Shown: positions 15,571 to 60,006, numbered from the stretch's first letter. The stretch is 64,000 nt of DNA from Auanema rhodensis (GCA_964057225.1 OZ059898.1:7874001-7938000), one strand, 5' to 3'. Numbers and translations are program-made. Notes: generated by a model not told the origin, from the sequence alone.

Positions 15571-15909
15571 TGTCGCTTGACAATTGGACTTTTACCTCCA
15601 AGTATCAGTCCAAGTATGGAGTTGGTTCGTATGAGTGCGGTATTATGCGTTAAGACAAGTAAAATGAAGAAAGGTTTATTCAACAAATGCAACAACAGTA
15701 AAGTGAATTACAGCAAGTGGATTGATTTTAGAACTTCCTAGAAAATCCTAAAATCAATTCAAAAATTGGTGAGACATAAAAAGTTCTCCCTTTTATAGGG
15801 AGGCACCAGATGGTTCAAGGGGAGGAGAATGTTCTTGCAAAAACAAAGTAAAAATGAGTTACAGTATAAAATTTACATATTTTTTCACGTCGACCGTGAC
15901 AGTCCGCGC

Positions 15910-16395
15910 CTAAAGTCTTCTTTTTTTGTTTGCTGAGCAGAGAGCAAAATGATGATCTGTTCCTTGACAGCGACTACAGGTTATGTTGCACTTGTCCATG
16001 TGTGCGGGGGCCAGGCATTTCACACAGATTCTTAGATGGTTACATCTGAGTGATCTGTGGTGGGCAGTTGAATATACTGGACAGTTGAACGAGCGATGGC
16101 CATCGGCAGGAGTTGATTCACAGAATAGGCATGAGTTAGGGTTCTTTAGGTTGGCTAGATTGTTGGTATTGTTGAGAAGAAGCTGCGATTGCAAATAGAG
16201 TTGGTCAATTTTTGCGTTTAGTTGCTCCAGAGCAGCTTCAATGTTGGAAGCACAAAGACGACTCTTTTCTTCAAGAATAATAATATGCTTCAGTTTTAAC
16301 GGTTCGCTTGGAAGCTGCTCCATATTTGAAAGCTTCAAATCATCGATGATTGATAGGAGGTTATCGTTCATTCTGACCGAAGTAGGTTCGGTCAT
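15910..16395 (-). CDS. Accessory coiled-coil plus triple zinc-knuckle protein of family C
   Basis: MTEPTSVRMND...CLFCESTPADGHRSFNC...CVKCLAPAHMDKC..CSRCQGTDHHFALC..KKRRL; preceded by a CTTCAG acceptor; ends 8 bp before the 3' LTR. Confidence 0.75.
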   Translation of the reverse strand: MTEPTSVRMNDNLLSIIDDLKLSNMEQLPSEPLKLKHIIILEEKSRLCASNIEAALEQLNAKIDQLYLQSQLLLNNTNNLANLKNPNSCLFCESTPADGHRSFNCPVYSTAHHRSLRCNHLRICVKCLAPAHMDKCNITCSRCQGTDHHFALCSANKKRRL

Positions 16396-16531
16396 AATGA
16401 TCGTCCGCAACTGAAGTATTTGTGAAATTTATCTCTATTTATACTATATTTTTGTACCTCCCCCTTGAATTTTTCTATTGTTTTCTTTAGATTCAAAAAA
16501 AAATTTTTTTTTATAGTTGTAGTTGTTGCAG

Positions 16532-16887
16532 ATGTCACAAATACCGTATCAGATTGAAGAGGAGATGGGAGAAGACGAGCTCGGTCCATATGAACTATGC
16601 GATCGATGTAAGGCGCAGGACACTCATCGCATACGGGAAGGCCCGGTAAGTATTGTTTTTTATTTATTTATTTATTTATATATTTATATATTTATTTATT
16701 ATTTTTTTTTATCTCAGTATTGTTGCAGATGACGGACGATGAGCTTTATCCGGAGGATGGAGTTGAGCCAACTCGGGAGCAGCTCATATACATGTTCCAG
16801 AGGATGCCGTTGCCTCCCAACTGCAGATTCTGCAGGGCAAAGAATCCCCGTCACCACGAATGTGTGAATTTTTTAAAGTGTTTTTAA
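16532..16887 (+). CDS. Antisense spliced accessory gene of family C (exons 16532-16645 and 16729-~16887), acidic CxxC protein
   Basis: TTGCAG|ATG, 114-nt exon, GTAAGT donor, AT-rich intron, TTGCAG acceptor, phase 0; conserved with the copy at 30281-30613. Confidence 0.7.
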
Positions 16888-18177
16888 ATTGTTCTTATAG
16901 CTAATTAATAAAGTTTTTTTTTCTTTTTTTTTTATTACTACAGTAAGATTAGTGTTTTAATTTTTATTTGTGCTAGACTCAGCTCAGTGTCTAGGATTTC
17001 TGAGCATTTTTCTCATTAATGATGTAATTATCATCACAATTTTTATTATCTGAATGATTAGTTTTTGTATGCTTATGATTATGATTATTATAATGATTGT
17101 TTGTACCCCTATTATATAAGATAATACTGGTATGAAAACAGTTATCAGGAGTAAGCATATCGATAATGCCCAATTTGTTTTAACTACATTCAGAATGTTT
17201 CTCCAGGTGTTAGCATTTGTCACAATGTTGATGATTGTTTTTTCAACATCTGGAATTTCACTATCCCATTGTAAGGTTCTTTGTATGATCATGCGGTGTT
17301 TTTCATTGGCACATGTTACAAAGCATTCTTCATAGATTTCAGAATTCTCTGAGTAATATTCCACAGCTGTAAGTGGCATGTGTGGAGCGCATTCAATCAT
17401 GTATATGTTCTCACTACATTGCATTGTGATCCAAGACTCCTTTTGTGATATACACATGAACTCGGCAACAGCCGTTCTTCTGCAGCTGTGACACCCGGAA
17501 AGTTTTTTAAATTCCGGTCGACAAGGAAAGTCGTACAGGAAGGTTCGAGACGACACATTCCCTTGTAGTTGAAGAACAACAGTTGATTCATCAGTTTGAG
17601 GAATAAGTGTTAATTTGTTTTCTTTCATGGTAATTAGGGTGTTCTTGGTTCATGGGTAATAAGTTTGCCTGATTGAAAATATTATCAGATGGACAGGTAC
17701 ATGTTAGTTCTTCCCTTTTTGATATTTTGCAGTTACACAACCTCAGTATTTTACAAGAGTTAAATTCATTTGTAGTTTGATATTTGGTTTTGCATGCTAC
17801 TTCACTCATAGTATGAGGTTCCATGTAATAACTGTTTAATGTTGATAATGCATATTTGGTGTTTAAATATCGGGTTGGTGGCACAATATGGGAGATTGAG
17901 CTTATATTAAAGTTTGGAAAATTAACAGTGTCGTATGGTTTTAAAAGAATATTAATATTGGCTTTGTGTTTAAATAGATCATACTTTAGCTCTAATGGTA
18001 TATTTATTTCCCACGAATCACATTCTACTATTTCATAAACTATTTCTTTGATTGGTTTAAATTCAGTTTGATAGAATGAGCAACCGTCTTCTAGAGACCA
18101 ACATCCGCAGAAAAGAGAACCACATCGCCTTGCACAACCAACTTGTGTTGGTCCTTCTTTTTTATCAAATTCTTGTA

Positions 18178-19725
18178 CACTGTGGTGCAAAATATTGTAA
18201 CCTCTTTATTTTAACATTTTTTTTTTCAAATGACGTTTTGTTCCAAATCTTTTTGTATTGTTTAGAAGCTTTTAAATTAACAAACATTTTATTATTGAGA
18301 GGAAAATTAATTAACAATATGGATGTGAGAAAAAGTGAAAATATTTTTTTTACAATTTTTGGGCAAAAATGAAGTTAAACAAAAAATTTAAAAAACACAA
18401 TTTTAATATGAAGTAGGACCTCCATTGTTTTCAATTACCTGAGCTAAACGTCTTGGCATGCTTGATGTCAAATTTGAACAGGTTTCAATTGATAGGAGGT
18501 CCCATGCATTTAAAATTGCTGTCCGAAGTTGTCTAGTATTTTCATACTGTCTTCCATCTTCGTACAGCTTTTTAACAAGAATACCCCATAGATTTTCTAT
18601 AGGGTTTAGATCAGGGGAATTGGAAGGCCATTTCAAAACACTAATATTATGTTCATCCAACCATGTTTTTGTGGACCAACTGGCATGGATGGGGGCATTA
18701 TCTTGTTGAAAAATCAAATTTTCACCAGGATAACTGTTGATATAAGGAATCAGACTATCTTGTAGGATAGCCTGATAGTCCTCGGAGTTTAGCGTGTTAG
18801 TTGTGAATTGGATCTGCAACTTTCCCGTTCAGGAAAATGCAGCCCAAACCATAACTGAACCTCCTCCAGCGGTACGCTTTGAGAAGTACCTCGACTCCTT
18901 ACGAAGGTCCCTCCAATAATTATGGACTCCGTCAGGACCATCGAGGTTAAACTTCTTCTCATCAGAAAATATGACCTAGAACAAAGAAATTAAAATCTAA
19001 GTTTTTTATATTCTGTTTACTTTTGTCCACTCTCGCTCCTCATTCTCTTCGGCAAAAATGACCCTATTTCTCTTATGAACAGGGGTCAAAAACGGGGCTT
19101 TCCTCATTTTAGCTCTCTTTATGGTTGTCGCTTGTGACAGAACCTTGCGTACCGTCCATCTCGATACGTTTAAATGCAGTTTGCCTGCAATAGTACTACA
19201 ACTGTTAGTAGAATTAGACGCTAAAAGTATAATTCGCCTCTTATCCCTGTCATTCAAAACAGGCTTCCTACCACAATTTGAACGTCTTGAATTGACGCTA
19301 CCTTCTGATAAAAAGCGGGTCACCGTGCTTCGTGCACGGCCCAGATTCTTGGCAATTGCTCGATGGCTCCAACCCGCGACAGAAAAGGCGTGGATTTGAG
19401 CTTTCTCAGCAACTGACAAGTCTCTGGTTCCGGGCATTATTCAGGTAAAGCCTGAATAAATTTCAAGAATTAGCAAAAATATTCAAAAAATTAAGTTGAA
19501 AGCAAAAAAAATTATTTTAAAGTTTTTTTTGATGATAGTAATGATCGCTGAAAAAAAGGTTTTGTTCATATATCTTTTTTATGACATGCGTTGACACCTT
19601 GCTTTATTTATGGTTTGACACATGTAGAAGTGTTTATTATTTATTTGTGAACATTGTTCAGAAAAATATTGATATTAAAAAAATTTAGATTTTTTTCGAG
19701 AGGTTACTATATTTTGCACCACAGG
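18178..19725 (-). mobile_element. Tc1/mariner (Tc3-like, DD34E) DNA transposon
   Basis: ~28-bp TIRs CACTGTGGTGCAAAATATTGTAACCTCT / AGAGGTTACTATATTTTGCACCACAGG; TA TSD at 18176-18177 and 19726-19727. Removing it restores env ...GEL-QEFD... Confidence 0.93.
18403..19437 (-). pseudogene. Tc3-like transposase, 45-bp intron (18976-19020), one in-frame TGA at 18829-18831
   Basis: HTH N-terminus; [41 protein letters not shown] motifs. Confidence 0.9.
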
Positions 19726-20520
19726 TAATTCTCCAATAGGATTTATAGCTTCACAAGTGTGATTACGAGATCCTGTTCCATAATAGGAATATTGAGTTTT
19801 GTATTGAATTGTGCTTTCTCGAGTATAATATAGCGTACTTTTCTGGCAAATGTATTCTGTTGGTTTTTTCGTTATTTCTATTTTACCGATAGATTTATTT
19901 TGGTAAATGAATTCTAAGCAAGCGTCTCTTATGCCTTTATTGAAAATGATTTCATTATCGTATTCTTGATAACAATTTGTTCTATTAATGCAAATTATAT
20001 TTATTGAATGCTTAATATGTGAGTTTGAACAAGATTCCACTGTTATTAATAATACCATGAGTGCTATGGATAATTGTAATGAAGTGAATGATGATGTTCT
20101 CATGTAATTTGGAATTTTAATAGTTTCTGGAATATCATTTTTCCATTTTGGAGTTACATTGTCAAATTTCGTGGTTACTGTGTTTTCCCTTTGTACGACT
20201 ACATCGTCTGAACTTGTTAATATTTTTGAATCAGGTTTTCCACTTCTAACTTCGGTTAGTATTGTTTGCCAATTATCATTTAAAAATTTATACCAATATT
20301 GATCATTTTATGAGCTTTCAATATTCTTTTAAAAATTGCTAATATAGTAAATAATAGCATAATTGGTATGAAAAAAGTTATCAAAGTCGCTAATGAATTA
20401 CATTGTGGGAAATATAATGCTTCCGCTGTTAGCAATTCAGAGGATTGGCATGTAGCCTCAACCGTTGGAATTATTCCAATAAGAGCTACTTTTGGAACAA
20501 TCGTTTTCATTTTATTTTTC

Positions 20521-23481
20521 TTAAAATAACTTTAACCATCTATTCAGATTTGATGGTGTGGATTCGTTTTCGGTTTGCAGAGTTATCTCATTTGTTTGAT
20601 CTTTCGCTTGCTCTAAGTTCGTATCATTAGAATCATTTTCGTTTCCTGCTTCGTTGATGATATTCATGTTGGGTGTATAAATGTCGAGTGGTATTACATC
20701 GTTATTTTGTTCACTTTCTTGAGTGTTTTCAAGGTGTTCAATATTTTCAACATTTTCAACCCGATTTCCTTTTTGTTTTACCGTTCCGCTGATTGAAAAA
20801 GAATTCACTTGGTATTTTTTATTGTATCTCATTGAGTGAGGTTCTGACGCAAACGGTGCTGCTTCTGCGTTTCTCACTTCTAGTGGATATATGTGGTTTA
20901 ATGAACGAATTGTTATAAGACCAGTGCCAGTTATTAGTTTTGCAGATCTAACTTCCCCATCTGAACTTTTTATCAGTTCTATTATGCGTCCTAATTTCCA
21001 TTTACCTCTACTTGAATCATCATTTTGTATTATAATAACTTCGCCTTCTTGTGGTTTCATTAGCGTGTATTGCAGGTTGTTTTCTGTTGTGTTTGTAAAT
21101 ATCTCTAAGATAAAGTAAATACTCGGAATAGAATTTTTTCCAGAATAGTTGAGTTACATAGTTAGATAACTCTATTGCTTCAATGGCTTGCTCTATAGTT
21201 TGTATTGTCCTGCTATTGATAGTTTTATCATAAATTCGGGTATTCGATACGTTTGCAGAAAGTGTAAACCTGATGGAACGGTTTAAAAAATCACAAGGTC
21301 TGATAGGCAAAATGTTCAGGTTGGATGGGTTTGGATGTGTAAGCGGGCAAGTATTCAAAATTGTTTCGATTTTTACAATTACTGTATGTATATCATCAAA
21401 TGACATTAATTTATTTCCAATTGTTTTGTATAGTGCTAACTTTGTTAGTCCTACTAGTCTTTTCCATGTTCCACCTTTCCATGGAGCCTGTGGTGTGTTG
21501 AAGTACCATTTAATATTCTTTTCGGCAAGATAATTGGTTAATGTTTTTTCATTTTTTGATTCATGGTTTTCTGTGTAAAACTCTATTACTTTAGCACTTA
21601 ATAACAAGTTTCCTCCATTATCGCTTCGTATTATTTCTGGAATACCTCTTCTTCCAATGAACCTTTCAAAAGCGTTTAAGAATGCCTTTGTTGATTGGTC
21701 AAAAACTATTTCTAAGTGTATAGCTCTTATAGCTAAACAAGTAAACAGACATATAAATATCTTTTTACCATCCTTTATGGTTATTGGACCTAATGAGTCA
21801 CAACCTGTACTCATGAATGGTTTTGTTAGAATAACTCTATCCTTAGGCAATGCTGGCATTAAGGACGTTCCAAACGGCAAAGCGTTGTATCTATTGCAGA
21901 TTGTTTTGAGAACTGATCTGACTATGCTTGATGGTCTACTTAAAAAGTATTTTTGACGCAAGAGTGTTAGAACAAAATCTCGCCCTTGGTGCATGCATTC
22001 TCTGTGTAAATGCATAATTATGTGTTCTGTGTACAGAGAATCCCTTGGAAGATACATGGGATTTTGAGTTCCAAACGGTAATTCCGAGTTGTTCAATCTA
22101 CTACGAACTCTTACGATACAAAACCTTTATGTTTTTTCGTGAGGAGATCTATTGTTACATGCTGTTGTGCTTTACTTATTAATAATTTGGTTATAATCTC
22201 ACTATCATTAGCTGTACTTTCCCAGTTTTTATCTAATTGCATTACCTTATTCAACCTTGTTGTAGCTGTGGGATGAACTTTTATGATCCAATGTCTCAAG
22301 AATTTACTTAATTTAACTATAGTTTTCAGTAAGGTATAGTTGTTGCTACGTAGTTTAAATATATCTTCAACTGGTATTTTTGTTATTTGTTGTTGTTCAA
22401 CGGTATCGATCAAGGTTGTTATATTCCAAATAGGCTCATATTCAATTTCTTCAATGTGTGATTTTGTTTGGGTTAACCATTGTGGTCCTTTAATCCACAT
22501 AGAATCACTTAGTTCTTGGAGACAAGCTCCTCGAGAACCAATATCGGCTGGGTTATAATCACCATTCACATGAAAAAGTTTGATTTTAATGTTATTTTCC
22601 TTCAATTTATCTATATACTTCCTTACATTGTCGACACGACAGCCTACATATGGTGGTAAAGTTTTCTGATGGTTAGCTATCCAATGTAAAGCTACCTTAC
22701 TGTTACTGGCTACGTGTACAGTTTGAAGATGATTGGTTGTAGATGTGATATTATCAGCTAACATAATACCTAATAGTATGGCAATCAGTTCTAGTCTTGG
22801 GATAGTCAGATTTCCTTTTTTTGCAATTTTCGACTTTCCACTTACAAGTTGGCTTATTTTACCATTGGTTTCAATGTATGTGCAGGCAGCAATGGCTAGT
22901 TTACTAGCATCAGTAAATACCCATAATATAGAGTCATTCAGATTTAACTTTCGTTTAAGTCTCAATTCCTTTTCATTTAATGATTCATTTATGGCTAAAT
23001 TCCATTTATGTGTTATTTCTTTGGGTAATTCAACATCCCAACCCTTGAATTGATCACTTGATTCTCTTAATATCAATTTTAATGGTAAAATCAATGGGCT
23101 TGCCATACCTAATGGATCAAATATTGAATGTATTTGACTTAACATGTTCCTGTGCGTGTTGATTTCAAATTTCTTTAATTTAAGTATAAGAAGTTTATTT
23201 GTGAGTTTATTCTCCAAAATATTCAAGTAATTTTTAACTCTTGCACATTCATTCTCTTGCGCAATTATTTGATTTACCGGCTCAGACAATTCAGAGTAAT
23301 CGGTCATTTTCTTATAGTTTTCAACTTTAGAATTCAGTTTATTCAAAAATTCTAATTCTCTCCCCATTTGGAGAATATATCTTTGAGCGGAGGACATTAT
23401 TTTAGCCTTCCTCAATGGATATTTCAGATTCAGCGATATTTTTATCGTCTTATTGTTTCTTGACAAGTGATTTCTTATCAA
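20521..23481 (-). pseudogene. C1 pol remnant: Gag N-terminus fused to RNase H region, then integrase and C-terminal domain
   Basis: IFDPLG, VFTDAS, TIPRLEL, NPADIGSRG, RFIGRRGIP..IRSDNG, WKLGRI; deletion junction at ~23200; frameshifts. Confidence 0.9.
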
Positions 23482-23936
23482 CTCGGATTTTCTACGAGTT
23501 CTTCGGAATTTATTTCTCCGGCGGTTCTATATAACCTTTAACACAGTGTTCTTTGGAATTCAACTGAATGATCCTGCCGTGGTCGCCAAATGTCGCTTGA
23601 CAACTGGACTTTTACCTCCAAGTATCAGTCCAAGTATGGAGTCGGTTCGTATGAATGCTGTGTTATCATCGGGGTCCTTGAGAATGTCAAAGAAGCGAGA
23701 GTATCTCTGAGACAACTTCTCAGAGAAAGATGGTCCAGATGGTCACAGAAGCTTTCTGTACCGTGCTAAGCACGACTCCTCAACTCCTCAATAACTTCGC
23801 CTTGCTATGGCGACCAAGATCAGCTTGCATCAAAGTCAAAAAAGGAATGTTAAATTCAAATTTAATTAGAAAAAACAAAAAGCTTACGGCACCCGGGATT
23901 CCCAAGCCGTCTCCGATCCAAGTACTAACCGGGCCC

Positions 23937-25987
23937 TGTCACGGTCGACGTGAAAGAATATGTAAGTTTCATACTGATTTTCACTCATTCTTACTTTGTT
24001 TTGCAAAAACATTCTCCTCCCCTTGATCGATCTGGTGCCTCCCTATAAAAGGGAGAACCAGATGGTTAAAACTCATGTCTCACCAATTTTTGAATTGATT
24101 TTAGGATTTTCTAGGAAGATCTAAAATCAATCTACTTGCTATTTTCACTTTACTGTTTGTTGTATTTCGTTGAATAAACCGTTCTTCATTAAAAAAAAAT
24201 ATATATAATAAATAAATAAATAAACAAATAAATAAATAAATAAATAAAAAACAATAAGCTTACCGGGCCTTCCCGTATGCGATGAGTGTCCTGCGCCTTA
24301 CATCGATCGCATAATTCATATGGACCGAGCTCGTCTTCTCCCATCTGATACTGTATTTGTGACATCTGCAACAACTACAACTATAAAAAAAAAAAAATTT
24401 TTTTTGAATCTAAAGAAAACAATAGAAAGATTCAAGGGGGTAGCTCGCGCCTTGCGCACCGTTGCCTTTTATTATATCAGGTATCAATTCTTTCGTTCAT
24501 TGGAAATGTTCAAGACTTTAACACCAAGCGGTAAATATCATGTTGTTCAGAAAGACATAGGATCCAATCCAATGCAGTTTGTAAATAGCGGGTTCTACTC
24601 CGTCCATTGTTGCTGCCCGGTAGTAAACACTGCAGATGTTTTTAGACGCAATAACTATGTCGCTCAGGCTACTATGATTGTAAATAACTCTTTTGATAAC
24701 AATAAAGTGTATCATTGTAAAAAAATATTATCTATGGATCCTAATTATATCTGTTCCCAACTTTCACAATATTGTAAAATAAAAGCTCCATTTGTATCTT
24801 TTCTACATTCTGTGTATGATCTTTCTCCAGCTGACATTGTTCAGACTTTAGATAACTGTGAAGCCATTAGAGCCGTGGGCGTCATTTTGTTCGATCCAGT
24901 CGTCCTTATAAAAAAATCCGGCATATTGCCTGAAATCGACGCGTCGTTTTCACGATATAAACAATTTGGCATCGAATATATTAGATTCTCCTTTGACAAC
25001 GACGTTCAACTCTGCTACACTCATCGATGGGATACTTACATTTTCATTATCAAGGCAATTGTTCTTACATCTACCACTTCCTTATACAGCTATGCTGTAG
25101 CCGAATTATTACAAATTTTACAAATACTTCAGTTGCGGACGATCATTATGACCGAACCTACTTCGGTCAGAATGAACGATAACTTCCTATCAATCATCGA
25201 TGATTTGAAGCTTTCAAATATGGAGCAGCTTCCAAGCGAACCGCTAAAACTGAAGCATATTATTATTCTTGAAGAAAAGAGTCGTCTTCGTGCGTCCAAC
25301 ATTGAAGCTGCTCTGGAGCAACTAAACGCAAAGATTGATCAACTCTATTTGCAATCGCAGCTTCTCCTCAACAATACCAACAATCTAGCCAACCTAAAGA
25401 ACCCTAACTCATGCGTATTCTGTGAATCAACTCCTGCCGATGGCCATCGCTCGTTCAACTGTCCAGTATATCCAACTGCCCACCACAGATCACTTAGATG
25501 TAACCATCTAAGAATCTGTGTGAAATGCTTGGCCCCCGCGCACATGGACGACTGCAACATAACCTGCAGTCGCTGTCAAGGAACAGATCATCATTCTGCT
25601 CTCTGCTCAGCAAACAAAAAAAGAAGACTTTAAGCGCGGACTGTCACGGTCGACGTGAAAGAATATGTAAGTTTCATACTGATTTTCACTCATTCTTACT
25701 TTGTTTTGCAAAAACATTCTCCTCCCCTTGATCGATCTGGTGCCTCCCTATAAAAGGGAGAACCAGATGGTTAAAACTCATGTCTCACCAATTTTTGAAT
25801 TGATTTTAGGATTTTCTAGGAAGATCTAAAATCAATCTACTTGCTATTTTCACTTTACTGTTTGTTGTATTTCGTTGAATAAACCGTTCTTCATTCTACT
25901 TGTTTTAACGCATAACACAGCACTCATACGAACCGACTCCATACTTGAACTGATACTTGGAGGTAATAGTCCAGTTGTCAAGCGACA
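23937..25987 (+). mobile_element. Non-autonomous family C element C2 carrying an RNA-virus fragment, inserted in a 5S gene
   Basis: 5' LTR 23937-~24190 (3'-truncated), 3' LTR 25642-25987, TGTCACG...GCGACA. TSD GGCCC (23932-23936 / 25988-25992). Split 5S halves at 23881-23936 and 25988-26055. Confidence 0.92.
24320..25633 (+). CDS. Chimeric ORF: 5'-truncated viral methyltransferase (~24441-25111) fused to family C zinc-knuckle protein
   Basis: ARALR..KDIGSN..VHCCCP..ADVFRR..LHSVYD..YTH followed in frame by MTEPTS...KKRRL. Confidence 0.8.
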   Translation: MDRARLLPSDTVFVTSATTTTIKKKKFFLNLKKTIERFKGVARALRTVAFYYIRYQFFRSLEMFKTLTPSGKYHVVQKDIGSNPMQFVNSGFYSVHCCCPVVNTADVFRRNNYVAQATMIVNNSFDNNKVYHCKKILSMDPNYICSQLSQYCKIKAPFVSFLHSVYDLSPADIVQTLDNCEAIRAVGVILFDPVVLIKKSGILPEIDASFSRYKQFGIEYIRFSFDNDVQLCYTHRWDTYIFIIKAIVLTSTTSLYSYAVAELLQILQILQLRTIIMTEPTSVRMNDNFLSIIDDLKLSNMEQLPSEPLKLKHIIILEEKSRLRASNIEAALEQLNAKIDQLYLQSQLLLNNTNNLANLKNPNSCVFCESTPADGHRSFNCPVYPTAHHRSLRCNHLRICVKCLAPAHMDDCNITCSRCQGTDHHSALCSANKKRRL

Positions 25988-26436
25988 GGCCCAACGTTGC
26001 TTGACTTGCCAGATCGGACGGGATGGCGTACTTTCAACGTGGTATGGTCGTAAACGATGCTATTCCTCTATTAGTGTATCTAGTACCTACCACCATGCTA
26101 CGGCTGTGCAACAGCTCTTATCATTCATCAGTCGATAACTGATTCCTTGTAGCTCCAGTAACACCGTGGTATATGAGGTTCTGTAGATATGCTCGTACAT
26201 CGGGGTCGTTAAGAATGTCAAAGAAGTGAGAGTATCTCTGAGACAACTTCTCAGAGAAAGATGGTCGAGATGTTCACAGAAGCTTTCTGTTCCGAGGCTG
26301 ACCACAACTCCTCAACTCCTCAATAACTTTGCCTTGCTATGACGACAAAGATCATTCAAATTTAATTAGGAAAAACAAAAAACTTACGACACCCGGGATT
26401 CCCAAGCCGTCTCCGATCTAAGTACTAACCGGGCCC

Positions 26437-28405
26437 TGTCGCTTGACAACTGGACTTTTACCTCCAAGTATCAGTCCAAGTATGGAGTCGGTTCGTATGA
26501 ATGCTGTGTTATGCGTTAAAACAAGTAAAATGAAGAACGGTTTATTCAACGAAATACAACAAAACAGTAAAGTGAGAATAGCAAGTAGATTGATTTTAGA
26601 ACTTCCTAGAAAATCCTAAAATCAATTCAAAAATTTGTGAGACATAAAAATTTTAACCATCTGGTTCTCCCTTTTATAGGGAGGCACCAGATGGTTCAAG
26701 GGGAGGAGAATGTTCTTGCAAAAACAAAGTAAAAATGAGTTACAGTATAAAATTTACATATTTTTTCACGTCGACCGTGACAGTCCGCGCCTAAAGTCTT
26801 CTTTTTTTGTTTGCTGAGCAGAGAGCAAAATGATGATCTGTTCCTTGACAGCGACTACAGGTTATGTTGCACTTGTCCATGTGTGCGGGGGCCAGGCATT
26901 TCACACAGATTCTTAGATGGTTACATCTGAGTGATCTGTGGTGGGCAGTTGAATATACTGGACAGTTGAACGAGCGATGGCCATCGGCAGGAGTTGATTC
27001 ACAGAATACGCATGAGTTAGGGTTCTTTAGGTTGGCTAGATTGTTGGTATTGTTGAGAAGAAGCTGCGATTGAAAATAGAGTTGGTCAATCTTTGCGTTT
27101 AGTTGCTCCAGAGCAGCTTCAATGTTGGAAGCACAAAGACGACTCTTTTCTTCAAGAATAATAATATGCTTCAGTTTTAGCGGTTCGCTTGGAAGCTGCT
27201 CCATATTTGAAAGCTTCAAATCATCGATGATTGATAGGAGGTTATCGTTCATTCTGACCGAAGTAGGTTCGGTCATAATGATCGTCCGCAACTGAAGTAT
27301 TTGTAAAATTTGTAATAATCCGGCTACAGCATAGCTGTATAAGGAAGTGGTAGATGTAAGAACAATTGCCTTGATAATGAAAATGTAAGTATCCCATCGA
27401 TGAGTGTAGCAGAGTTGAACGTCGTTGTCAAAGGAGAATCTAATATATTCGATGCCAAATTGTTTATATCGTGAAAACGACGCGTCGATTTCAGGCAATA
27501 TGCCGGATTTTTTTATAAGGACGACTGGATCGAACAAAATGACGCTCACGGCTCTAATGGCTTCACAGTTATCTAAAGTCTGAACAATGTCAGCTGGAGA
27601 AAGATCATACACAGAATGTAGAAAAGATACAAATGGAGCTTTTATTTTACAATATTGTGAAAGTTGGGAACAGATATAATTAGGATCCATAGATAATATT
27701 TTTTTACAATGATACACTTTATTGTTATCAAAGGAGTTATTTACAATCATAGTAGCCTGAGCGACATAGTTATTGCGTCTAAAAACATCTGCAGTGTTTA
27801 CTACCGGGCAGCAACAATGGACGGAGTAGAACCCGCTATTCACAAACTGCATTAGATTGGATCCTATGTCTTTCTGAACAACATGATATTTACCGCTTGG
27901 TGTTAAAGTCTTGAACATTTCCAATGAACGAAAGAATTGATACCTGATATAATAAAAGGCAACAGTGCGCAAGGCGCGAGCTAACGAATGTGGTCCGCCG
28001 TCAGTATTACTGGTTTCTATCCTAAAACACGAAAAGTTTTTTTGGATATCCTGTAATTGTTCATTAGTCAATATTTGTTGTAGCCTTATCAAGATTTTTC
28101 CCGATGAATCAAAATTAATTGATCTCATACGGTTATCTAAGACACTAGCCTTAATAGCAGCAGCTACACTACTATTAGGGTTGTTAAGGATAACGTTCTT
28201 TAAGACAGGGTCGAAGTTTTTATCGGCTGAAACAGACAAGAGAAAATCTCCCATACATTTATCATCTGTCGGAAATTTCTCACAACGATAACCAGCATCG
28301 TCCATAACAATTAAGTTATTAGACGAAGTGGAAGTGTAGTCCTTCATGTCCACTATGTGATACAATCAAGTATCACAAATCGTAGACGGAGTATCTACAC
28401 TTCAA
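26437..28405 (-). mobile_element. Family C element C3 (3' LTR 26437-26782 plus viral cargo), 5' end lost at array inversion junction
   Basis: LTR end abuts the 5S GGGCC site (3' half-gene 26381-26436); ORF ends 8 bp before the LTR. Confidence 0.88.
26791..28347 (-). CDS. Alphavirus-superfamily (tobamo/virga-like) methyltransferase-guanylyltransferase fused to zinc-knuckle protein (~518 aa); endogenous viral element
   Basis: LTNEQ..F..FRIETSNT..GPHSLARALR, KDIGSN, VHCCCP, DVFR, FLHSVYD, FSFDND..LCYTH parallel the TMV replicase N-terminal motifs (HSLAGGLR, DIGGN, VHCCMP, DIMR, ALHSIYD, FSF..YCH) in order. Confidence 0.88.
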   Translation of the reverse strand: MKDYTSTSSNNLIVMDDAGYRCEKFPTDDKCMGDFLLSVSADKNFDPVLKNVILNNPNSSVAAAIKASVLDNRMRSINFDSSGKILIRLQQILTNEQLQDIQKNFSCFRIETSNTDGGPHSLARALRTVAFYYIRYQFFRSLEMFKTLTPSGKYHVVQKDIGSNLMQFVNSGFYSVHCCCPVVNTADVFRRNNYVAQATMIVNNSFDNNKVYHCKKILSMDPNYICSQLSQYCKIKAPFVSFLHSVYDLSPADIVQTLDNCEAIRAVSVILFDPVVLIKKSGILPEIDASFSRYKQFGIEYIRFSFDNDVQLCYTHRWDTYIFIIKAIVLTSTTSLYSYAVAGLLQILQILQLRTIIMTEPTSVRMNDNLLSIIDDLKLSNMEQLPSEPLKLKHIIILEEKSRLCASNIEAALEQLNAKIDQLYFQSQLLLNNTNNLANLKNPNSCVFCESTPADGHRSFNCPVYSTAHHRSLRCNHLRICVKCLAPAHMDKCNITCSRCQGTDHHFALCSANKKRRL

Positions 28406-28409
28406 TATA

Positions 28410-28458
28410 AGGCATGTTCCATACGTGTCTTATAAAGAAGGCGGTTGACAACGTCAAT
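28410..28458 (+). mobile_element. Diverged fragment of Gypsy family B LTR 5' end with upstream AGGCA
   Basis: AGGCATGTTCCATACGTGTC..TATAA....TTGACAACGTCAAT matches 40781-40829. Confidence 0.8.
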
Positions 28459-28462
28459 ATTG

Positions 28463-28530
28463 TTATATTGTTGAAAAACAACTTACATTTCTTCAGAACA
28501 ACTCAGAGGTTTTTCTGTACGATTGCCTGC
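28463..28530 (-). repeat. 68-bp copy of the neighbouring RTK gene (56172-56239)
   Basis: TTATATTGTTGAAAAACAACTTACATTTCTTCAGAAC...GATTGCCTGC, one visible mismatch; spans an exon-intron boundary. Confidence 0.9.
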
Positions 28531-29026
28531 AAGTCAAGCAACGTTGGGCCCGGTTAGTACTAGGATCGGAGACGGCTTGGGAATCCCGGGTGCCGTAAGC
28601 TTTTTGTTTTTCCTAATTAAATTTGAATTTAACATTCCTTTTTTGACTTTGATGCATGCTGATCTTTGTCGTCATAGCAAGGCAAAGTTATTGAGGAGTT
28701 GAGGAGTTGTGGTCAGCCTCGGAACAGAAAGCTTCTGTGAACATCTCGACCATCTTTCTCTGAGAAGTTGTCTCAGAGATACTCTCGCTTCTTTGACATT
28801 CTTAACGACCCCGATGTACGAGGATATCTATAGAACCTCATATACCACGGTGTTACTGGAGGTGCAAGGAATCAGTTATCGACTGATGAACGATAAGAGC
28901 TGTTGCACAGCCGTAGCATGGTGGTAGGTACTGGATACACTAATAAAGGAATGGCATCGCTTACGACCATACCACGTTGAAAGTACGCCATCCCGTCCGA
29001 TCTGGCAAGTCAAGCAACGTTGGGCC
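28529..29026 (+). repeat. First plus-strand 5S unit (5'-truncated gene 28529-28601; 5' half-gene 28959-29026)
   Basis: 5S sequence resumes at +47 in the opposite orientation to the left arm. Confidence 0.92.
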
Positions 29027-29370
29027 TGTCGCTTGACAACTGGACTATTACCTCCAAGTATCAGTCCAAGTATGGAGTTGGTTCGTATGAGTGCGGTATT
29101 ATGCGTTAAGACAAGTAAAATGAAGAAAGGTTTATTCAACAAATGCAACAACAGTAAAGTGAATTACAGCAAGTGGATTGATTTTAGAATTTCCTAGAAA
29201 ATCCTAAAATCAATACAAAATTGGTGAGACATAAAATTTTAACCATTTGGTTCTCCCTTTTATAGGGAGGCACCAGATGGTTAAAGGGGGTGGAGTTAAT
29301 CCAAAAAATACAAATAAAACGTTACCGCAATAAAGTACGTATTTTCACGTTGACCGTGACATTCCCGGCA

Positions 29371-29832
29371 TTACGTATATCTTTTACGTTTGACGTCTCC
29401 ACAGACCACTCCATGGTGAGTATCGGCCTTGCACTTATAGCAGGATATTTCGCACATTGCTGAATGTTTTGGGTTTAAACATTTTATGCATAGCCCCAAT
29501 TCGTGTAAGCGTATGGTACGCTCTGGGGAGGAGGGGTAAATCGGACAAGCAGCTGTACGATGGCCATCAGCTGTAGGCTTGTTGCAGAATATGCAGGAGG
29601 CTTTAGGAGCCGTCTGAACAGCTAAATTATCGAGCTTTAGATTCAGTGTGCTGTTGATGTTGTCCAGACGCGCGGAAATGTGGTTGACAGCGCTGGCGAG
29701 GTTATCATAAAACCTTTTCTCTAGAACCATTAGCTGCCTTAGGTTGGCAGTGGTGTTGGGTAGATGAGAATATTTTTTGAGATCTTCCTCAAAGGAAGTG
29801 TTCTCACTTGAATTGGACGTTATTTCATCCAT
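29371..29832 (-). CDS. Divergent paralogue of family C accessory zinc-knuckle protein
   Basis: ATTCAG acceptor then MDEITS...CIFCNKPTADGHRTAAC..CIKCLNPKHSAMC..CYKCKADTHHGVVC..KRKRYT. Confidence 0.75.
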   Translation of the reverse strand: MDEITSNSSENTSFEEDLKKYSHLPNTTANLRQLMVLEKRFYDNLASAVNHISARLDNINSTLNLKLDNLAVQTAPKASCIFCNKPTADGHRTAACPIYPSSPERTIRLHELGLCIKCLNPKHSAMCEISCYKCKADTHHGVVCGDVKRKRYT

Positions 29833-30280
29833 TAGCACTGAATTGAGAAAAACAATGGTTTCCCTCTTTATATATTTGTTCGCATCTGTGGGTTGACCTA
29901 TGATAAACGTCCCATAGTTTATTGTAGAATAGTATGTGTTTACGGATACAATGTATAAAAAGCCTGTACAAAGGATTACTTCTTATGTATATTATTCGGA
30001 TAAATAAACTTGATGTTATCAAAGATTGAAGATCTTGATAAAAATATTTGTTTGTTTATAACTGTTGCATTTGTTTCTATATGTAGTGATTTTCTTTTGT
30101 TTATATTATTTTTATAACCTATTTTTGCTTTGTTTATATTTTTTACTACTGTACTACGTGTGATTAGTAATTTAATTTTTATTGTATTCGTGAAGTTTTT
30201 GTACTTCCCTCTTGAATTTTTCTATTGTTTTCTTTAGATTCAAAAAAAATTTTTTATTTTTATAGTTGTAATTGTTGCAG

Positions 30281-30613
30281 ATGTCACAATTACAGTATCT
30301 GGTTGAAGAGGAGATTGGAGAAGACGAGCTCGGTCCATATGAACTATGCGAACGATGCAAGGCGCAGGACACTCATCGCATACGGGAGGGCCCGGTAAGC
30401 TTATTATTTTTTATTTTATTTTATTTATTTATTTATTTATTTTTTTTTTTTTTTATCTCAGTATTGTTGCAGATGACAGACGATGAGCTTTATCCGGAGG
30501 ATGGAGTCGAGCCAACTCGGGAGCAGCTCATCTACATTTTCCAGAGGATGCCGTTGCCTCCCAACTGCAGATTCTGCAGGGCAAAGAACCCCCGCCACCA
30601 CGAACGTGAGGAG
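30281..30613 (+). CDS. Antisense spliced accessory gene (exons 30281-30394, 30473-30613), 3' exons lost
   Basis: Canonical TTGCAG/GTAAGC sites; 114- and 141-nt phase-0 exons, each with a CxxC..H motif. Confidence 0.7.
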
Positions 30614-30649
30614 GTAAGCTTATATATTTTAACTGTTAATGTAAGTATT

Positions 30650-33600
30650 GTTGTAGATGTAACATTATCAGCTAACATAATACCTAATAGTATGGCAATG
30701 AGTTCTAGTCTTGGGATAGTCAGATTTCCCTTTTTTGCAATTTTCGACTTTCCGCTTACAAGTTGGCTTATTTTACCATTGGTTTCAATGTATGTGCAGG
30801 CAGCAATGGCTAGTTTACTAGCATCAGTAAACACCCATAATATAGAGTCATTCAGGTTTTACTTTCTTTCAAGTCTCAATTCCTTTTCATTCCATAATTC
30901 ATTTATGGCTAAATTCCATTTATGTGTTATTTCTTTGGGTAATTCAACATCCCAACCCTTGAATTGATCACTTGATTCTCTTAATAATAACTTTAATGGT
31001 AAAATCAATGGGCTTGCCATACCTAATGGATCAAATATTGAATGTATTTGACTTAACATGTTCCTGTGCGTGTTGATTTAAAATTTCTTTAATTTAAGTA
31101 TAAGAACGAATAAATCTAATTTTGTATCATAATTTAAACCCAAAATTTTGGTAGTATTATGTGGGTATTTGTCTTCATTGTTCATATCTTCAGTAACTTT
31201 TGGATTGTTGCTCATAAATTCTCTTAAATTCATAGAAATGCCTTGTAAGATTTTCTTGGCTTTCTCGCATTTTATCTTAGCTTCTTCAACATTGTTTGCA
31301 TATAAAATTATATTGTCAACATATAAGGAATCGAGCAAGTGACTAGCGTAAGGGTCGGTATGATTATTGAGGTACCAAGCTAAGCTCATGCTTAATATAC
31401 CCGGGGACGCTGTTATACCAAATGGTAGCCGTTTGAATTGGTATGTCATGACGTTATATTTATTTACAGATTCATTTTCGTTTCTAATCCAGAAAAATTT
31501 ACAATATTTTCTGTGCTCTTCTTTAATACTTATTTGTAAAAATGCTGACTCAATGTCGCAGGTTATTATTATTGGACTTTTTCTACATTTTATTAATATA
31601 TCATGAATTTTGTGAATAAGTGTTTGGCCTGAATGCATAACTTGGTTCAACGATGGACTATTTTTTTGTTTTGCTGAAGCATCAAACACGATTCTTAAAG
31701 GTCGAGCTTTTTCTTTTCTCCACACTCCATGATGTGGTAAGAAAAATCCATCTTCGGCTGATTCATCAACAATTGGCTCGATAATTCCCTTTTGAATGTA
31801 TTCATTTATTAATTTTTTATACCATTCTAGTTGTTCTCTATTAGAGTGTAGATTTTTCCATAATGTCATAAATCTATGAAAGGCTGGCCATTTATTATTT
31901 TTCAATTTATTCAAATAATTTTTAAATGGAAACGGAGCTTCAATTCTCCCGGCTTTAATAGATAGTTCTTTACCATATTCTTCAAGATAATTCGCTGCTT
32001 CTGCATTGTTATCTACTATGGTGCTTATTCCAATAGTATCGATAAGGAAAAGCTCTTTCAGTTTTGTTTCTGGAGGTGGTTCATGACTTTGTTCCTCTTC
32101 AATGCTACATAGAGTTACAATTTTTTCAAGTTTAGTTTCTCCATTTATAAGAGTTCCAAATACAGATCCCTTACATAAAAGATCAGAGGGAAGTCTGAAT
32201 TCTTCATTGTCTTTTACAAACAATTTTAATCTATCTTGTCCAATTAAAACATCCGGTTCGAAAACTTCCCGATTTGTATCGGTATTGGCTAATATAATAT
32301 TGTTTTCTTTAATGAAACCTAAATCCTTTCTTGAAAGACAAGGACTATATATGTGGGAACTGATTTTTGGCTTAGTGAGCATTTCAGTTACAATTAAATT
32401 TTTCTCTTTAGTATAGAATATTGTGTTAACTATACTTGAAACATGAGAATGTTTCATTCCTCCAATACCATGAAATGTTTTTCTTTGTTTGGATTTAACT
32501 GGTAGTTTCATCCTTTTTGCTAGATCTTCTCTGATAAAAGATCGTTGAGAACAATCATCAAAAATAATGTTAACCTTTTCATAGCTATCGCTATTGTAAT
32601 TGAATTTTAAATTAATTTTAAATTTGCTTTTGCTGTTCGTAAAATTATTTGTCTTTTTTCTACGTCATGATTACCAACAATTGTGGTTAAACTTGTGGGT
32701 TCTTCATGTGCTGTTTTGGGAATAATTGTTTGATTATTTCTGGTCTTTTCTTCATCATTACCCCTTTGTAAAGAAATGTTGGTGATGACTCCATTTCTAT
32801 TCTGATTTCTTTTATTTTGGTAACAAACTGAAATGTTGTGATTATCATGACAGCTGTTGCATTTAAACTTTGGCCATGTGCAGTTTTTGCTTTGATGATT
32901 GTCTGCAAAGCATACATAACATAGCCTTTTTTCTCTTAAAATTTTCCTTTTTTCCGTTGTTTCAACAGGACACATATGGCTATTGTGTGAATTGTTCGCG
33001 CAAAAAACGCAATTCCTTCTTTGTTTCAAATCTTTAACTTCATTCAATCGAAATTGTTTTTTAGTTTGATCACCATCTGGATTTTTACTTTTTTCATTGT
33101 TAGTGAGATACAGTGATTTAGTGTTTTCAGTCATCTGTAGTAGTTTTACTTGCGCCGAAATATGTTCAATGATTTTCTCGTGGGACCATTCAAAATTTTG
33201 TTTGATGTGAATATCTTTGATTATTTCAAATGGGAATTTATTGAGTACGGTAGCAACATAAAGCTCTTTGGTAAAAGATCCTCCCGCCGCTTGAATTTGT
33301 CGCAGCAGAGCTTTTATCTCTCTTAGCGTTTAAGCACAACTATCGGCTCGTCTTGAAGCTTTTGGCACCTTATTCAACTTGTTGATCAGCGTTGCTGTAT
33401 CAACAGCGTATGAGGAATATTCTTCCTTCAAACAATTTTTCATAAACTCATAGTTTTCTTCGGTACCAGGAATTCCCCTAAGAAGATATTCGGCTTCACC
33501 TGATAAGGACTCACATAGGAAATTCACTTTTTCACTTATAGAGAAAGATTCATTGTTATCAATCATTCTCATGAATCTATCCCAGAATAAAGGGAATTTT

Positions 33601-34217
33601 TCCGGAGTACCGTCAAAGGTTGGAGTTTTTAATACGGGTCTTTGCAGTATTTCGTTAATCAGTCTTACTTCATTAACATGCTGATCATGTACTACCTGAT
33701 CGGGTAAACTGTTTTGTTTTTCTTGTACCTCGTTTGTACAATTTTCATATTCTTCTTCTTCTGTATATTCAACTCTTTCCCGAAGTTGTTGTAATTCAAG
33801 TTGTATTTCCATATCTTTGATTTTTTCTTTGTTTTTATCAATGAGATTTTTTAAGAATATCAACTTGTCATTTAATTCCAGTATTATTAAGTGGCATTGC
33901 CACGGATGTCTCCTTTTTCACCTTCTTCGATTTTTGTAAATTTTTTTGTTTAATTCTTTTTGGAGCTATTCTTCTAAAAGCTCACAAACTCTTTGAAAAT
34001 TAATTTCAATGGTTTCAATTGATTGGAGTTTATTCTCCAAAATATTCAAGTAATTTTTAACTCTTGCACATTCATTCTCTTGCGCAATTATTTGATTTAC
34101 CGGCTCAGACAATTCCGAATCGGTCATTTTCTTATAGTTTTCAACTTTAGAATTCAGTTTATTTAAAAATTCTAATTCTCTCCCCATTTGGAGAATATAT
34201 CTTTGAGCGGAGGACAT
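30650..34217 (-). pseudogene. C4 gag-pol remnant (Gag, zinc knuckles, protease, RT, RNase H)
   Basis: PTFDGTPEKFPLFW, CVFC..H....C, LRIVFDAS, CDIESAFLQI, RLPFG, LYVDNI, FTDAS; several stops and frameshifts. Confidence 0.92.
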
Positions 34218-35212
34218 TATTTTAGCCTTCCTCAATGGATATTTCAGATTCAGCGATATTTTTATCGTCTTATTGTTTCTTGACAAGTGATTTCTTGTCA
34301 ACTCGGATTTTCTACGAGTTCTTCGGAATTTATTTCTCCGGCGGTTCTATATAACCTTTAACACAGTGTTCTTCGGAATTTATTTCTCCGGCGGTTCTAT
34401 ATAACCTTTGTTTTAAACTTTCCTTATCAGTAAGCAACTGAAATATCCTGCTGTGGTCGCCAAATGTCGCTTGACAACTGGACTTTTACCTCCAAGTATC
34501 AGTCCAAGTATGGAGTTGGTTCGTATGAGTGCGGTATTATGCGTTAAGACAAGTAAAATGAAGAAAGGTTTATTCAACAAATGCAACAACAGTAAAGTGA
34601 ATTACAGCAAATGGATTGATTTTAGAATTTCCTAGAAAATCCTAAAATCAATGCAAAATTGGTGAGACATAAAATTTTAACCATTTGGTTCTCCCTTTTA
34701 TAGGGAGGCACCAGATGGTTAAAGGGGGTGGAGTTAATCCAAAAAATACAAACAATACGTTACCGCAATAAAGTACGTATTTTCACGTTGACCGTGACAG
34801 GGCCCAGTTAGTACTTGGATCGGAAATGGCTTGGGAATCCCGGGTGCCGTAAGCTTTTTGTTTTTCCTAATTAAATTTGAATTTAACATTCCTTTTTTGA
34901 CTTTGATGCATGCTGATCTTGGTCGTCAGAGCAAGGTGAACTTATTGAGGAGTTGAGGAGTCGTGGTCAGCCTCGGAACAGAAAGCTTCTGTGAACATCT
35001 CGACCATCTTTCTCTGAGAAGTTGTCTCCGAGATACTCTCGCTTCTTTGACATTTTTAACGACCCCGATGTACGAGGATATCTACAGAACCTCATATACG
35101 ACGTTGTTACCGGAGGTACAGGGAATCAGTTATCGACTGATGAAAGATAAGAGCTGTTGCACAGCCATGGCATGGTGGTAGATACTACATACACTAATAG
35201 AGGAAGAGCATC

Positions 35213-38871: not shown

Positions 38872-39081
38872 ATGACGGACTCGAAGAGTAAAAATCCTCC
38901 GCAGGATAAAACAAATCCACAGAGCGCAGCCCCCGGTAATGATACGCACGTCGAGCCAGTACTCGAGCAGAATCAAAGAAAGAGAGGACCTCCAAATGTT
39001 TATGAGCCGGACACGAAGCGCCGACCTACTGCTGCAAAGAAACCACCCGCTATACCGGGTACCCCCGCGAAAAAAAAATAG
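38872..39081 (+). CDS. Small basic proline-rich peptide (69 aa) of element B
   Basis: Follows a TTCCAG acceptor (38858); RKRGPPNVYEP resembles RRKRQPPATYSP at the equivalent position in element A. Confidence 0.5.
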   Translation: MTDSKSKNPPQDKTNPQSAAPGNDTHVEPVLEQNQRKRGPPNVYEPDTKRRPTAAKKPPAIPGTPAKKK

Positions 39082-39975
39082 GCACAACAGCTATCAAAAC
39101 TTCTCGCCACGCTATTACTCTTAGTAAAATTAAAACGTCTATTAACAAACAAACTCCTAAACGCAATTCTAACGTTATCAAAAGCTCTAGCTATGTTAGC
39201 ACAAATACTTCCCCTTGTAAAGATTATTCTCAAATATCATTTTCATACCCAAATACTGCTATTCTTTTTTCTCCTCTTCCTCGAAATTCACCAAACTATC
39301 AGAGAAAATAGAAGAAAACGCAAGAAAAGAATTGTATGAGGAACGGAAGAAGGAGCCACCCACAATTAAGAAATGGAGTTCAGCACTTAAATTGGCATTG
39401 GGATTAGAAGATAATTCTCCTACAACGCCAGCAAAGCCTTATCATGTGCCGATAAGGTATCACAGCACCATACCAGTAACAGAGCCGAAGAAGAGAGTTT
39501 CGAAGAGTCAGATCCCGGACCCAAACTTCGTGGCACCAACAGTACCAGTCATCCATAAGAAAAGACCGTCAACAGTTATTGGGACTACAAGTAAGAAGCT
39601 AGAACAATAGTAAAAATCCATAATTTCTATATAAAAATCACAAAAAGTATAATACCATTTTCATAATTTTCATCTAAACTTGAACCTATATATGATTTTT
39701 TTTTCTCATTTAAGTAAGACATAAAATTCTACACAAATTATTGTACATTTTTATTTTTTCACTCTCATAAAAATATTGTATCAATAACCAAAATTTCAAA
39801 ATAAAATTATACATCATACTTGGAATCTTTCAAAAATCACTGCAAAGTTTTAATCAACAATCTTCATCATTTTTTTTCACCTAACTGGTCAAAAAGGAGG
39901 CGACAAAAAGGAAGGAACAGACCGACCTAGTTTTAAAAAGGATAAAAAGGACAGAAAACAGTAACAAAGATAACA

Positions 39976-40578: not shown

Positions 40579-41267
40579 AAAGAACCTTTGAAAGATTCCC
40601 AGTATGATATATGATATATTATTTTGTAATTACATCGTTTCCCTTCATTTTTTCTTCATTAAATTATTCTATATTATCAATATTCTTTTATATATTTTTT
40701 AAAACATTTCCTACAACTTTCACATTTGCATGGAATTTCACTTTCTCGATGTAGCTGAGGTCAGCTACTTTTTCGGTATTAGGCATGTTCCATACGTGTC
40801 CTATAAGTAGAGCGATTGACAACGTCAATCGCTTATAAAACGGAACATTATAAAAACAAATAGCTGACGCTACATTTGAGAAACAGGAATTCAATGCAAC
40901 AATGAACGAACACTTTTTCATATTAAGTTTAATTAAAGAAAGCCCAATTCAAGCGGAACCAAGTTCCGCGGACCTGATATAACCACTTTTTATGCTCGTA
41001 AGGAATACTATATAAGGTTTCCTTACGAGTCCCTTGGGCTGCGACTAGGAATCATTATGTAACTTTTATTATTGTAATTTGTATACTTTATCATAAATAA
41101 ACCTTTCTCTCTATACTCTTTATCATTTATATTTGGAAGAAAAGAAAGTAATTCCATGTGGTTACCCAGCCGGAACCCTGGGGAACCAACATGGAACGAA
41201 GATAAGAGCTGTTGCACAGCCATGGCATGGTGGTAGATACTAGATACACTAATAGAGGAATAGCATC

Positions 41268-55917: not shown

Positions 55918-60006
<4,089 letters not shown>

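Follow-up and report, generated by a model that had tools for sequence, protein, structure and literature searches.

A truncated nege/virga-like virus sequence joined to a BEL/Pao retrotransposon, in two inverted copies, in the 5S rDNA of Auanema rhodensis

In a 64,000-nucleotide (nt) stretch of the Auanema rhodensis genome (GCA_964057225.1 OZ059898.1:7874001-7938000; here the window), truncated sequence of a nege/virga-like RNA virus adjoins that of a BEL/Pao retrotransposon whose family we call C. The joint occurs in two inverted copies, C2 and C3. We consider it probable that both go back to one recent template-switch capture and that the viral piece was later copied into a neighbouring sister element; capping activity is predicted to be absent.

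Results

Each copy has one long open reading frame (ORF) that runs from viral sequence into a zinc-knuckle gene of the element: 518 amino acids (aa) in C3 (26791-28347, minus strand) and 437 aa in C2 (24320-25633, plus strand), both open. An earlier reading of the sequence, which we refer to as the original prediction, had noticed ~670 bp shared by the two ORFs, sitting in C2 in place of ~30 bp of the virus-free sister C1, and had both frames reading without a stop into MTEPTS...KKRRL. These observations hold: the common non-element DNA measures 672 bp (24441-25112 = 27983-27312), is absent from C1 and replaces 29 bp, and both frames are uninterrupted. The parts of the two copies and of the elements used for comparison, with their long terminal repeats (LTRs), are as follows.

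C2, a deleted recombinant element
23932..23936, plus strand: left target-site duplication GGCCC, equal to 5S gene nt 64-68
23937..24190, plus strand: 5' LTR, 254 of 346 bp, identical to the 3' LTR; its last 92 bp, the primer-binding site and gag-pol-env are deleted together
24191..24440, minus strand: remnant of the family C antisense accessory gene (intron tract, first exon, upstream flank), with a 12-bp deletion relative to C1 and D; exon structure read from sequence
24320..25633, plus strand: fusion ORF, 437 aa, the first 40 aa from the antisense gene's non-coding strand
24441..25112, plus strand: viral fragment, 672 bp, capping core without catalytic His or Iceberg region
25113..25633, plus strand: acceptor-like CTTCAG (25132) and accessory knuckle ORF (ATG at 25148), variant B
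25642..25987, plus strand: 3' LTR, followed by the right target-site duplication at 25988-25992

C3, a one-ended copy
26437..26782, minus strand: 3' LTR, with its end exactly at the target site, 5S nt 64
26791..27311, minus strand: acceptor-like site (27292) and knuckle ORF (ATG at 27276), variant A, 5/528 differences from C1
27312..28347, minus strand: viral coding part, codons 1-345 of a nege/virga-like replicase; full capping core, cut 31 aa after Tyr314
28348..28400, minus strand: probable viral 5' leader, ~53 nt, structured (folding z-score, leader lengths in relatives)
28401..28457, plus strand: patch 1, 57 bp, internal-region end and LTR start of an F-like retrotransposon family, opposite to virus sense
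28463..28534, plus strand: patch 2, a 72-bp copy (97%) of host tyrosine-kinase exon/intron DNA at 56172-56243
28529..28601, plus strand: 5S gene nt 47-119, the first plus-strand 5S piece

Comparison elements
15571..23666, minus strand: C1, virus-free sister and reference, with Pao RNase H/peptidase A17, integrase, phlebovirus-G2 env and both accessory genes
29027..34800, minus strand: D, related element with two LTRs, its 3' LTR ~630 bp upstream of the C3 viral part and in the same orientation

Identity of the viral part

The Pfam profile Vmethyltransf (PF01660), which the original prediction had named as the check on its claim, matches both ORFs (C3, E 6.5e-21; C2, E 1.9e-19). An AlphaFold model of the viral part, built on a six-sequence alignment with a mean predicted local distance difference test score of 64.5, resembles chikungunya nsP1 (Foldseek E 2.4e-7) and virga/nege-like replicases in BFVD; the top match in the Atlas comparison was also Vmethyltransf (0.90, low recognition). 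The PDB gave no sequence match. In C3 we find His120, Arg127, DxxR at 187-190, Cys226/233, Tyr314 and His316, each conserved in 128-148 of the 139-149 relatives aligned at its column. The viral part of C2 starts directly after the catalytic His, the only core motif that it lacks. Alignment to relatives thus confirms that the conserved His, Asp, Arg and Tyr are kept in C3 and that C2 begins past the His, as had been proposed. Judged by these matches, the viral part is an alphavirus-supergroup capping-enzyme core by descent.

A full HMMER scan returned 312 relatives at E<=0.001, and the best 150 of the 312 share 23-55% identity with the viral part. Most of these 150 are polyproteins (117 with a length of at least 1,700 aa), and the relatives scanned for domains contain a helicase and, in most cases, an RNA-dependent RNA polymerase (RdRp). 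Among 20 hits looked up, 10 carried names: eight replicases of nege-, virga- or bluner-type viruses or of Wuhan house centipede virus, one tomato fruit blotch virus protein and one generic FtsJ label. The named relatives among the hits looked up are nege-, virga- and bluner-like, at 28-35% identity. The earlier assignment to the alphavirus-superfamily methyltransferase/guanylyltransferase (MTase-GTase) is therefore borne out by Pfam, HMMER relatives and fold, but its tobamo/virga-like label needs correction, the nearest relatives being nege/virga/kita-like and not tobamoviral.

The closest relative among the matches is P0001, a 196-aa sequence on a 1004-bp public contig that is 55% identical; it stems either from a still living relative of the source virus or from a further endogenous copy carried by a related host. 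A quick tree of 70 of the 150 hits (ids up to P0070 aligned over >150 aa, plus P0001) placed the viral part as sister to P0001 (SH-aLRT, an approximate likelihood ratio test, 99), with weak deeper nodes. An alignment scan of viral contigs gave 51 loci, 50 at 19-37% identity and one at 45% over 33 residues. Single-sequence searches yielded no close relative among 12 candidates in viral contigs or 338 in metagenome contigs. Word-seeded protein searches were blank both for the viral part against longer proteins (0/3018 candidates) and for the whole fusion (0/7997); these blanks are weak because the full HMMER scan found 312 relatives.

How much of the virus was captured can be estimated from C3. 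Its ORF start lines up with the relatives' own N-termini, and the region 28335-28403, which includes the putative leader of ~53 nt, is structured (z -3.66; 0 of 200 shuffles as stable). Leaders of 6-207 nt were seen, by a rough rule, in 18 of 51 viral contigs examined, a range that includes ~53 nt. Since the ORF start matches those of relatives and a structured leader precedes it, C3 appears to contain the 5'-terminal ~1,090 nt of the viral genome. No further piece of the source virus, helicase or RdRp included, was found within the 64-kb window. Viruses of this group have no DNA stage. With viral sequence in chromosomal DNA, joined to the element in the same polarity, the locus has the make-up of an endogenous viral element (EVE).

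Truncation of the capping domain

The original prediction suggested that the fusion could give the element its own capping activity, tethered to RNA by the knuckles. What is left of the domain speaks against this. MTase-GTases of the alto group consist of a Core (His, DxxR, Tyr) and an essential Iceberg region of 155-260 aa (PMC4392871), and the Semliki Forest nsP1 mutant Delta270-537, cut 20 residues into Iceberg, is listed in Table 1 of that paper with <1% of both activities left. In the window the Pfam match spans profile positions 9-207 of 310, and the viral sequence ends 31 residues past Tyr314, whereas five full-length relatives show a match that continues for 107-151 aa beyond the Tyr. 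The Core-plus-Iceberg arrangement of a functional enzyme is accordingly not found, the Iceberg region being missing. Because Iceberg is absent, because the equivalent alphavirus truncation is <1% active and because C2 also lacks the His, we predict that the viral capping enzyme is inactive.

Polymerase II transcripts are capped by the host. An element that supplied its own capping enzyme, held on RNA by the knuckles, would have in its favour the four defining core residues and open 518-codon frame of C3, as well as the functional viral helicase domains reported in fusion to retrotransposon proteins (PMC4686597, PMC5563155). We regard it as very improbable. Besides the loss of Iceberg and, in C2, of the His, C3, the sole copy with the His, has no promoter of its own and bears a residue rare among relatives at two of the three positions where the copies differ in amino acid (6/148 and 6/147 relatives, against 58 and 95 for the C2 residue; the third is uninformative, with 6 and 6 of 33). 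Capping by the host counts against it too, and none of the 150 relatives is fused to a knuckle or retroelement protein.

Family C and its target

The window holds a 5S rDNA array, with 28 units detected by Rfam, in which LTR elements are nested. Element types and intron style suggest a nematode host. Family C is a BEL/Pao family with LTRs, a 5-bp duplication, Peptidase_A17, DUF1759, DUF5641, a triple knuckle, integrase and a phlebovirus G2-like envelope gene (env), as seen in the sisters C1 and D. Behind env stand an antisense intron-containing gene and a sense knuckle ORF, the three knuckles of which are spaced as in the family's own Gag. Every family C copy in the window carries deletions, and C2 and C3 retain from the family only LTR, knuckle gene and accessory remnant. 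Nucleotides 64-68 of the 5S gene are the insertion site of C and D in both orientations, with four element ends at the same site.

Neither virus-bearing copy has the two full LTRs and the primer-binding site that a transposition-competent chimera would have around its insert: the 5' LTR of C2 is short and lacks that site, and C3 has no 5' LTR at all. The matching LTRs and target-site duplication originally ascribed to C2 are thus partly upheld. The GGCCC duplication is real, but the LTR match, although 100%, covers only 254 of 346 bp, the 5' LTR lacking its last 92 bp. An A-run after this LTR was considered as a poly(A) tail and rejected, as it matches the intron A-tract in C1 and D.

At the left boundary of C3 the 5S array flips strand, all 5S pieces being minus to the left and plus to the right, and the kinase gene that donated patch 2 lies just past the array's right edge (55754). 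A ~27-kb inversion at the flip is probable. The precise LTR end at 5S nt 64, the missing 5' LTR, the patches and the strand flip together argue for one-ended integration of C3.

Relation between the two copies

As the original prediction noted, the copies differ by several substitutions and carry different LTR variants. We counted 6 differences in 672 viral bases, all of them transitions, compared to 15/528 in the knuckle segment (p = 0.014) and 18/343 in the LTR; for the element part including the LTR the count is 33/871, versus 6/672 (p = 0.0002). Immediately to the right of the viral fragment, 25113-25183 is identical in C2 and C3 (71 bp), and the first element difference falls at 25184. 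Since C2 has the LTR and knuckle gene of another variant than C3 while the viral part is nearly identical, this pattern of differences identifies C2 as a recombinant with a variant-B element and not as a transposed copy of C3, with a homologous right junction and a non-homologous left one.

Support in public sequencing runs

The sequence is present in DNA-type runs of three studies (11 of the 14 rows listed, 10 with half its words or more). RNA-type runs did not appear among these rows, which says nothing about expression. Contigs were compared for four public runs from three studies (X1, X2, X6 and X10). On the element side of the virus/element junction, bridging contigs of X1 and X2 extend for 37 letters and a contig of X6 for 30, one under the 31-letter rule; no piece among those listed for X10 bridges it. 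The left junction of C2 (24440/24441) is bridged by no piece among those listed. Contigs of X1, X2 and X6 extend 25-30 bases past the left boundary of C3. That the whole arrangement is an assembly artefact or live-virus contamination is hardly credible: repeats abound in the region and the whole stretch is not covered by any one contig, but DNA-type runs of three studies contain the sequence, contigs of X1, X2 and X6 cover the junction and pass the C3 boundary, and viruses of this group lack a DNA stage.

The runs also differ from one another. In X1 the divergence point of C2 and C3 is crossed by one uninterrupted contig, there are almost no viral contigs of the C2 type, and a joint without virus occurs, a hint that X1 is an isolate with C3 but a virus-free C2. 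In X2 and X6 contigs break at the divergence point with ~2:1 depth, hinting at two copies only. At some sites X2 and X6 show both copies as one allele. We rejected this as proof of gene conversion, because assembly can collapse near-identical paralogues.

A route of capture and copying

The proposal that viral RNA was recombined in during reverse transcription fits the shared polarity of virus and element, the single junction common to both copies and a strong precedent. The following route would account for the locus. Minus-strand synthesis on a family C RNA would have copied the 3' LTR and the knuckle gene; at a point 35 nt upstream of the ATG of that gene it would have changed template to the viral genomic RNA, entering near nt 1,090 and running off at the virus 5' end; we favour run-off because the ORF start aligns with relatives' N-termini and a structured ~53-nt leader precedes it. 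The single LTR end may then have integrated at the family's 5S target, and the LTR-less end would have been closed by end-joining with templated patches at the array flip, giving C3; repair of its other end would have been accompanied by the ~27 kb inversion. A variant-B sister could subsequently have taken up the 672 bp as DNA, through one homologous junction (in the 71-bp identical stretch) and one non-homologous junction, giving C2. In-frame reading would be incidental to all this, with the knuckle protein likely still made from the acceptor beside its own ATG.

The step from C3 to C2 admits two routes. The original prediction had the chimera transposing at least once after its capture, a claim weakened by the recombinant nature of C2, which DNA-level copying from adjacent C3 explains at least as well. 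We slightly favour such copying over recombination of co-packaged RNAs, because a single 5S unit separates the copies, C3 lacks a promoter and a leader of its own, C1 and D have exchanged LTR sequence, and X1 shows the pattern described above. The LTR exchange is visible as a run of 8 D-type sites in the C1 LTR. Alternatively, the capture would be the same but C2 would stem from a second round of reverse transcription, in which an RNA with the virus and one of variant B were packaged together, the polymerase switched out and back, and the product integrated beside C3 and later lost its internal region. We hold this second round to be a possible but less likely course of events. In its favour, all six viral differences are transitions, and copy-choice is the accepted model of capture (PMC5177903, 10.1101/127498); identical LTRs over 254 bp with a canonical GGCCC duplication speak for it as well. 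Against it stand the lack in C3 of a 5' LTR promoter or leader for packageable RNA, the separation of C2 and C3 by only one 5S unit in an array of 28, and the hint of a virus-free C2 in X1.

Several observations weigh against capture followed by DNA-level copying as we describe it. The same LTR identity and target-site duplication in C2 are also expected of fresh retrotransposition of the chimera, and the left junction of C2 has no notable microhomology. The virus-free joint in X1 could belong to C1 and not to a C2 that lacks the virus, and copy number does not follow from contig depth. The missing 5' half of C3 could be a later loss. Finally, the synonymous share of the viral differences (3/6) is above neutral expectation, although the changes are too few for a test.

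In-frame reading into the knuckle gene

The knuckle ORF is present in four copies (15913-16395, 25148-25630, 26794-27276 and 29374-29870), in which the Gag triple knuckle is duplicated behind a leucine-rich helical region. A word-seeded search, likewise weak as a negative, gave no homologue among 6 candidates. Between C1 and C2 the ORF differs by 9 synonymous and 7 non-synonymous changes, which suggests that it is under constraint. An acceptor-like TTCAG precedes the knuckle ATG by 15 nt in C and by 5 nt in the diverged D, suggesting that translation of the knuckle protein normally uses an RNA from which splicing or trans-splicing has removed the upstream sequence; the site likely bypasses the fusion.

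All three frames are open over the 35 nt from the junction to the knuckle ATG, so a sense capture would be in frame one time in three, and the in-frame reading is probably incidental. The C2 fusion uses as its start codon the fifth ATG that follows the TATA box. This ATG lies on the strand opposite to the coding strand of the antisense gene, and the frame of the fusion hinges on a homopolymer tract (A13/T8). A domesticated domain would be full-length, under purifying selection and kept across species. Here the domain is truncated, no knuckle or retroelement sequence occurs in the 150 best relatives, and the 3 synonymous and 3 non-synonymous differences between the viral parts (143 and 526 sites) are too few for a test.

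An inverted repeat as a candidate small-RNA source

C2 and C3 form the arms of an inverted repeat (24441-25987 and 26437-27983) with 1505 of 1547 positions identical and perfect runs of up to 225 nt. The loop between the arms (25988..26436) is one 5S repeat unit of 449 nt. LTR promoters face inward from both sides, in the 5' LTR of C2 and the 3' LTR of D. The original prediction had mentioned antiviral small RNA as an alternative role. Convergent or read-through transcripts could form a 1.5-kb hairpin with 672 bp of viral stem, and besides the arms, loop and inward promoters, this idea can draw on the family's own antisense gene, on EVE-derived small RNAs reported in mosquitoes (10.1101/127498) and on Dicer products reported in a parasitic nematode (PMC11445058). 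That the locus acts in this way now nevertheless seems unlikely to us. An AATAAA signal in the LTR that ends each arm ought to halt read-through, the source virus is not known to persist, and the C2 insert, possibly missing in one isolate, need not be selected. A more speculative form, to which we give still less credence, is a heritable antiviral hairpin in the making: a one-ended cDNA would have integrated, ~27 kb of array inverted and the piece been copied to a sister, with double-stranded RNA feeding Dicer and one- and two-copy isolates segregating.

Discussion

Capture of RNA-virus sequence by an LTR retrotransposon is a known kind of event, and the functional novelty first proposed for this locus falls away: it is no evidence for a retrotransposon with its own capping enzyme. 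Kondo and colleagues are said to have described virga/nege-like EVEs in insects in 2017. The nearest likeness is eBxnv-1 of Bursaphelenchus xylophilus, where a nematode-type BEL/Pao element (of the Tas clade there) carries a truncated replicase gene of a plus-strand RNA virus, the insertion is recent and strain-polymorphic, and copy-choice capture was proposed (PMC5177903). That case involves a nodavirus RdRp, in a single copy and as a separate ORF with low expression, whereas here a nege/virga-like capping core reads in frame with the knuckle gene, in two inverted copies in a 5S array, one of them without a 5' LTR. The superfamily 1 helicase fusions of insect LINE and LTR elements resemble our locus in that a virga/nege-like replicase domain is translationally fused to a retrotransposon protein, but they are reported to have the full-length domain with every motif, to persist across insect families and to act weakly as silencing suppressors (PMC4686597, PMC5563155, PMC6338049); the domain in A. 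rhodensis is a different one, is truncated and is found fused in no relative searched.

In the LTR-associated EVEs of Aedes aegypti, viral fragments share the polarity of the neighbouring LTR element (543/614) within LTR-element clusters, as they do here. For those EVEs an output of PIWI-interacting RNAs was shown (10.1101/127498), while the present copies, a candidate source of small RNA, form an inverted repeat. With the alto-group MTase-GTases the viral part shares His, Arg+7, DxxR, paired Cys, Tyr and an nsP1-like predicted fold, and it departs from them in lacking Iceberg (about 155-260 aa) and, in C2, the His (PMC4392871). Family C itself is like Atlas virus and other envelope-bearing nematode Belpaoviridae in its Pao peptidase A17, integrase and phlebovirus G2-like env (PMC9094657); compared with Atlas virus it adds 5S rRNA gene targeting and two accessory genes behind env, and its copies in the window are all deleted. 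Virgaviridae-like viruses are recorded for two parasitic nematodes (PMC11445058). In the open-access literature our searches turned up neither a fusion of a viral capping domain with a retrotransposon protein, nor a nege-like EVE of a nematode, nor a Pao element that targets 5S genes.

RNA-virus capture by retrotransposons is for the most part reconstructed from insertions that are old and decayed. At this locus the junctions are preserved to the base, the capture seems to reach the virus 5' end and a sister element without virus is found next to it, so that the route can be followed in the sequence itself. The locus also records an otherwise unknown nege/virga-like lineage in the host germ line. 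Should isolates turn out to differ in copy number, of which one run gives a hint, small-RNA immunity against viruses through a nematode EVE becomes testable by comparing isolates.

Other features of the window

The internal deletions of C1 and D are complementary: C1 is without most of gag, protease and reverse transcriptase, and D without most of the RNase H region, integrase and env. A Tc3-like DNA transposon sits inside the env gene of C1 (18400-19440, minus strand). The antisense intron-containing accessory gene of families C and D, which has CxxC motifs, lies between env and the knuckle gene at 30272-30620 and 16450-16865 (both plus strand).

Two further LTR elements are present. Element F (37041-41198, plus strand) has identical 412-bp LTRs and only short ORFs, with no Pfam match in the part scanned (39946-40578), and is probably non-autonomous. 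Element G, a BEL/Pao element (42232-50581), is inserted near 5S nt 12-16 with an ACCAC duplication; one intact gag-pol-env ORF of 2444 codons (42823-50157, plus strand) includes a phlebovirus G2 envelope, and its LTRs are 99.8% identical.

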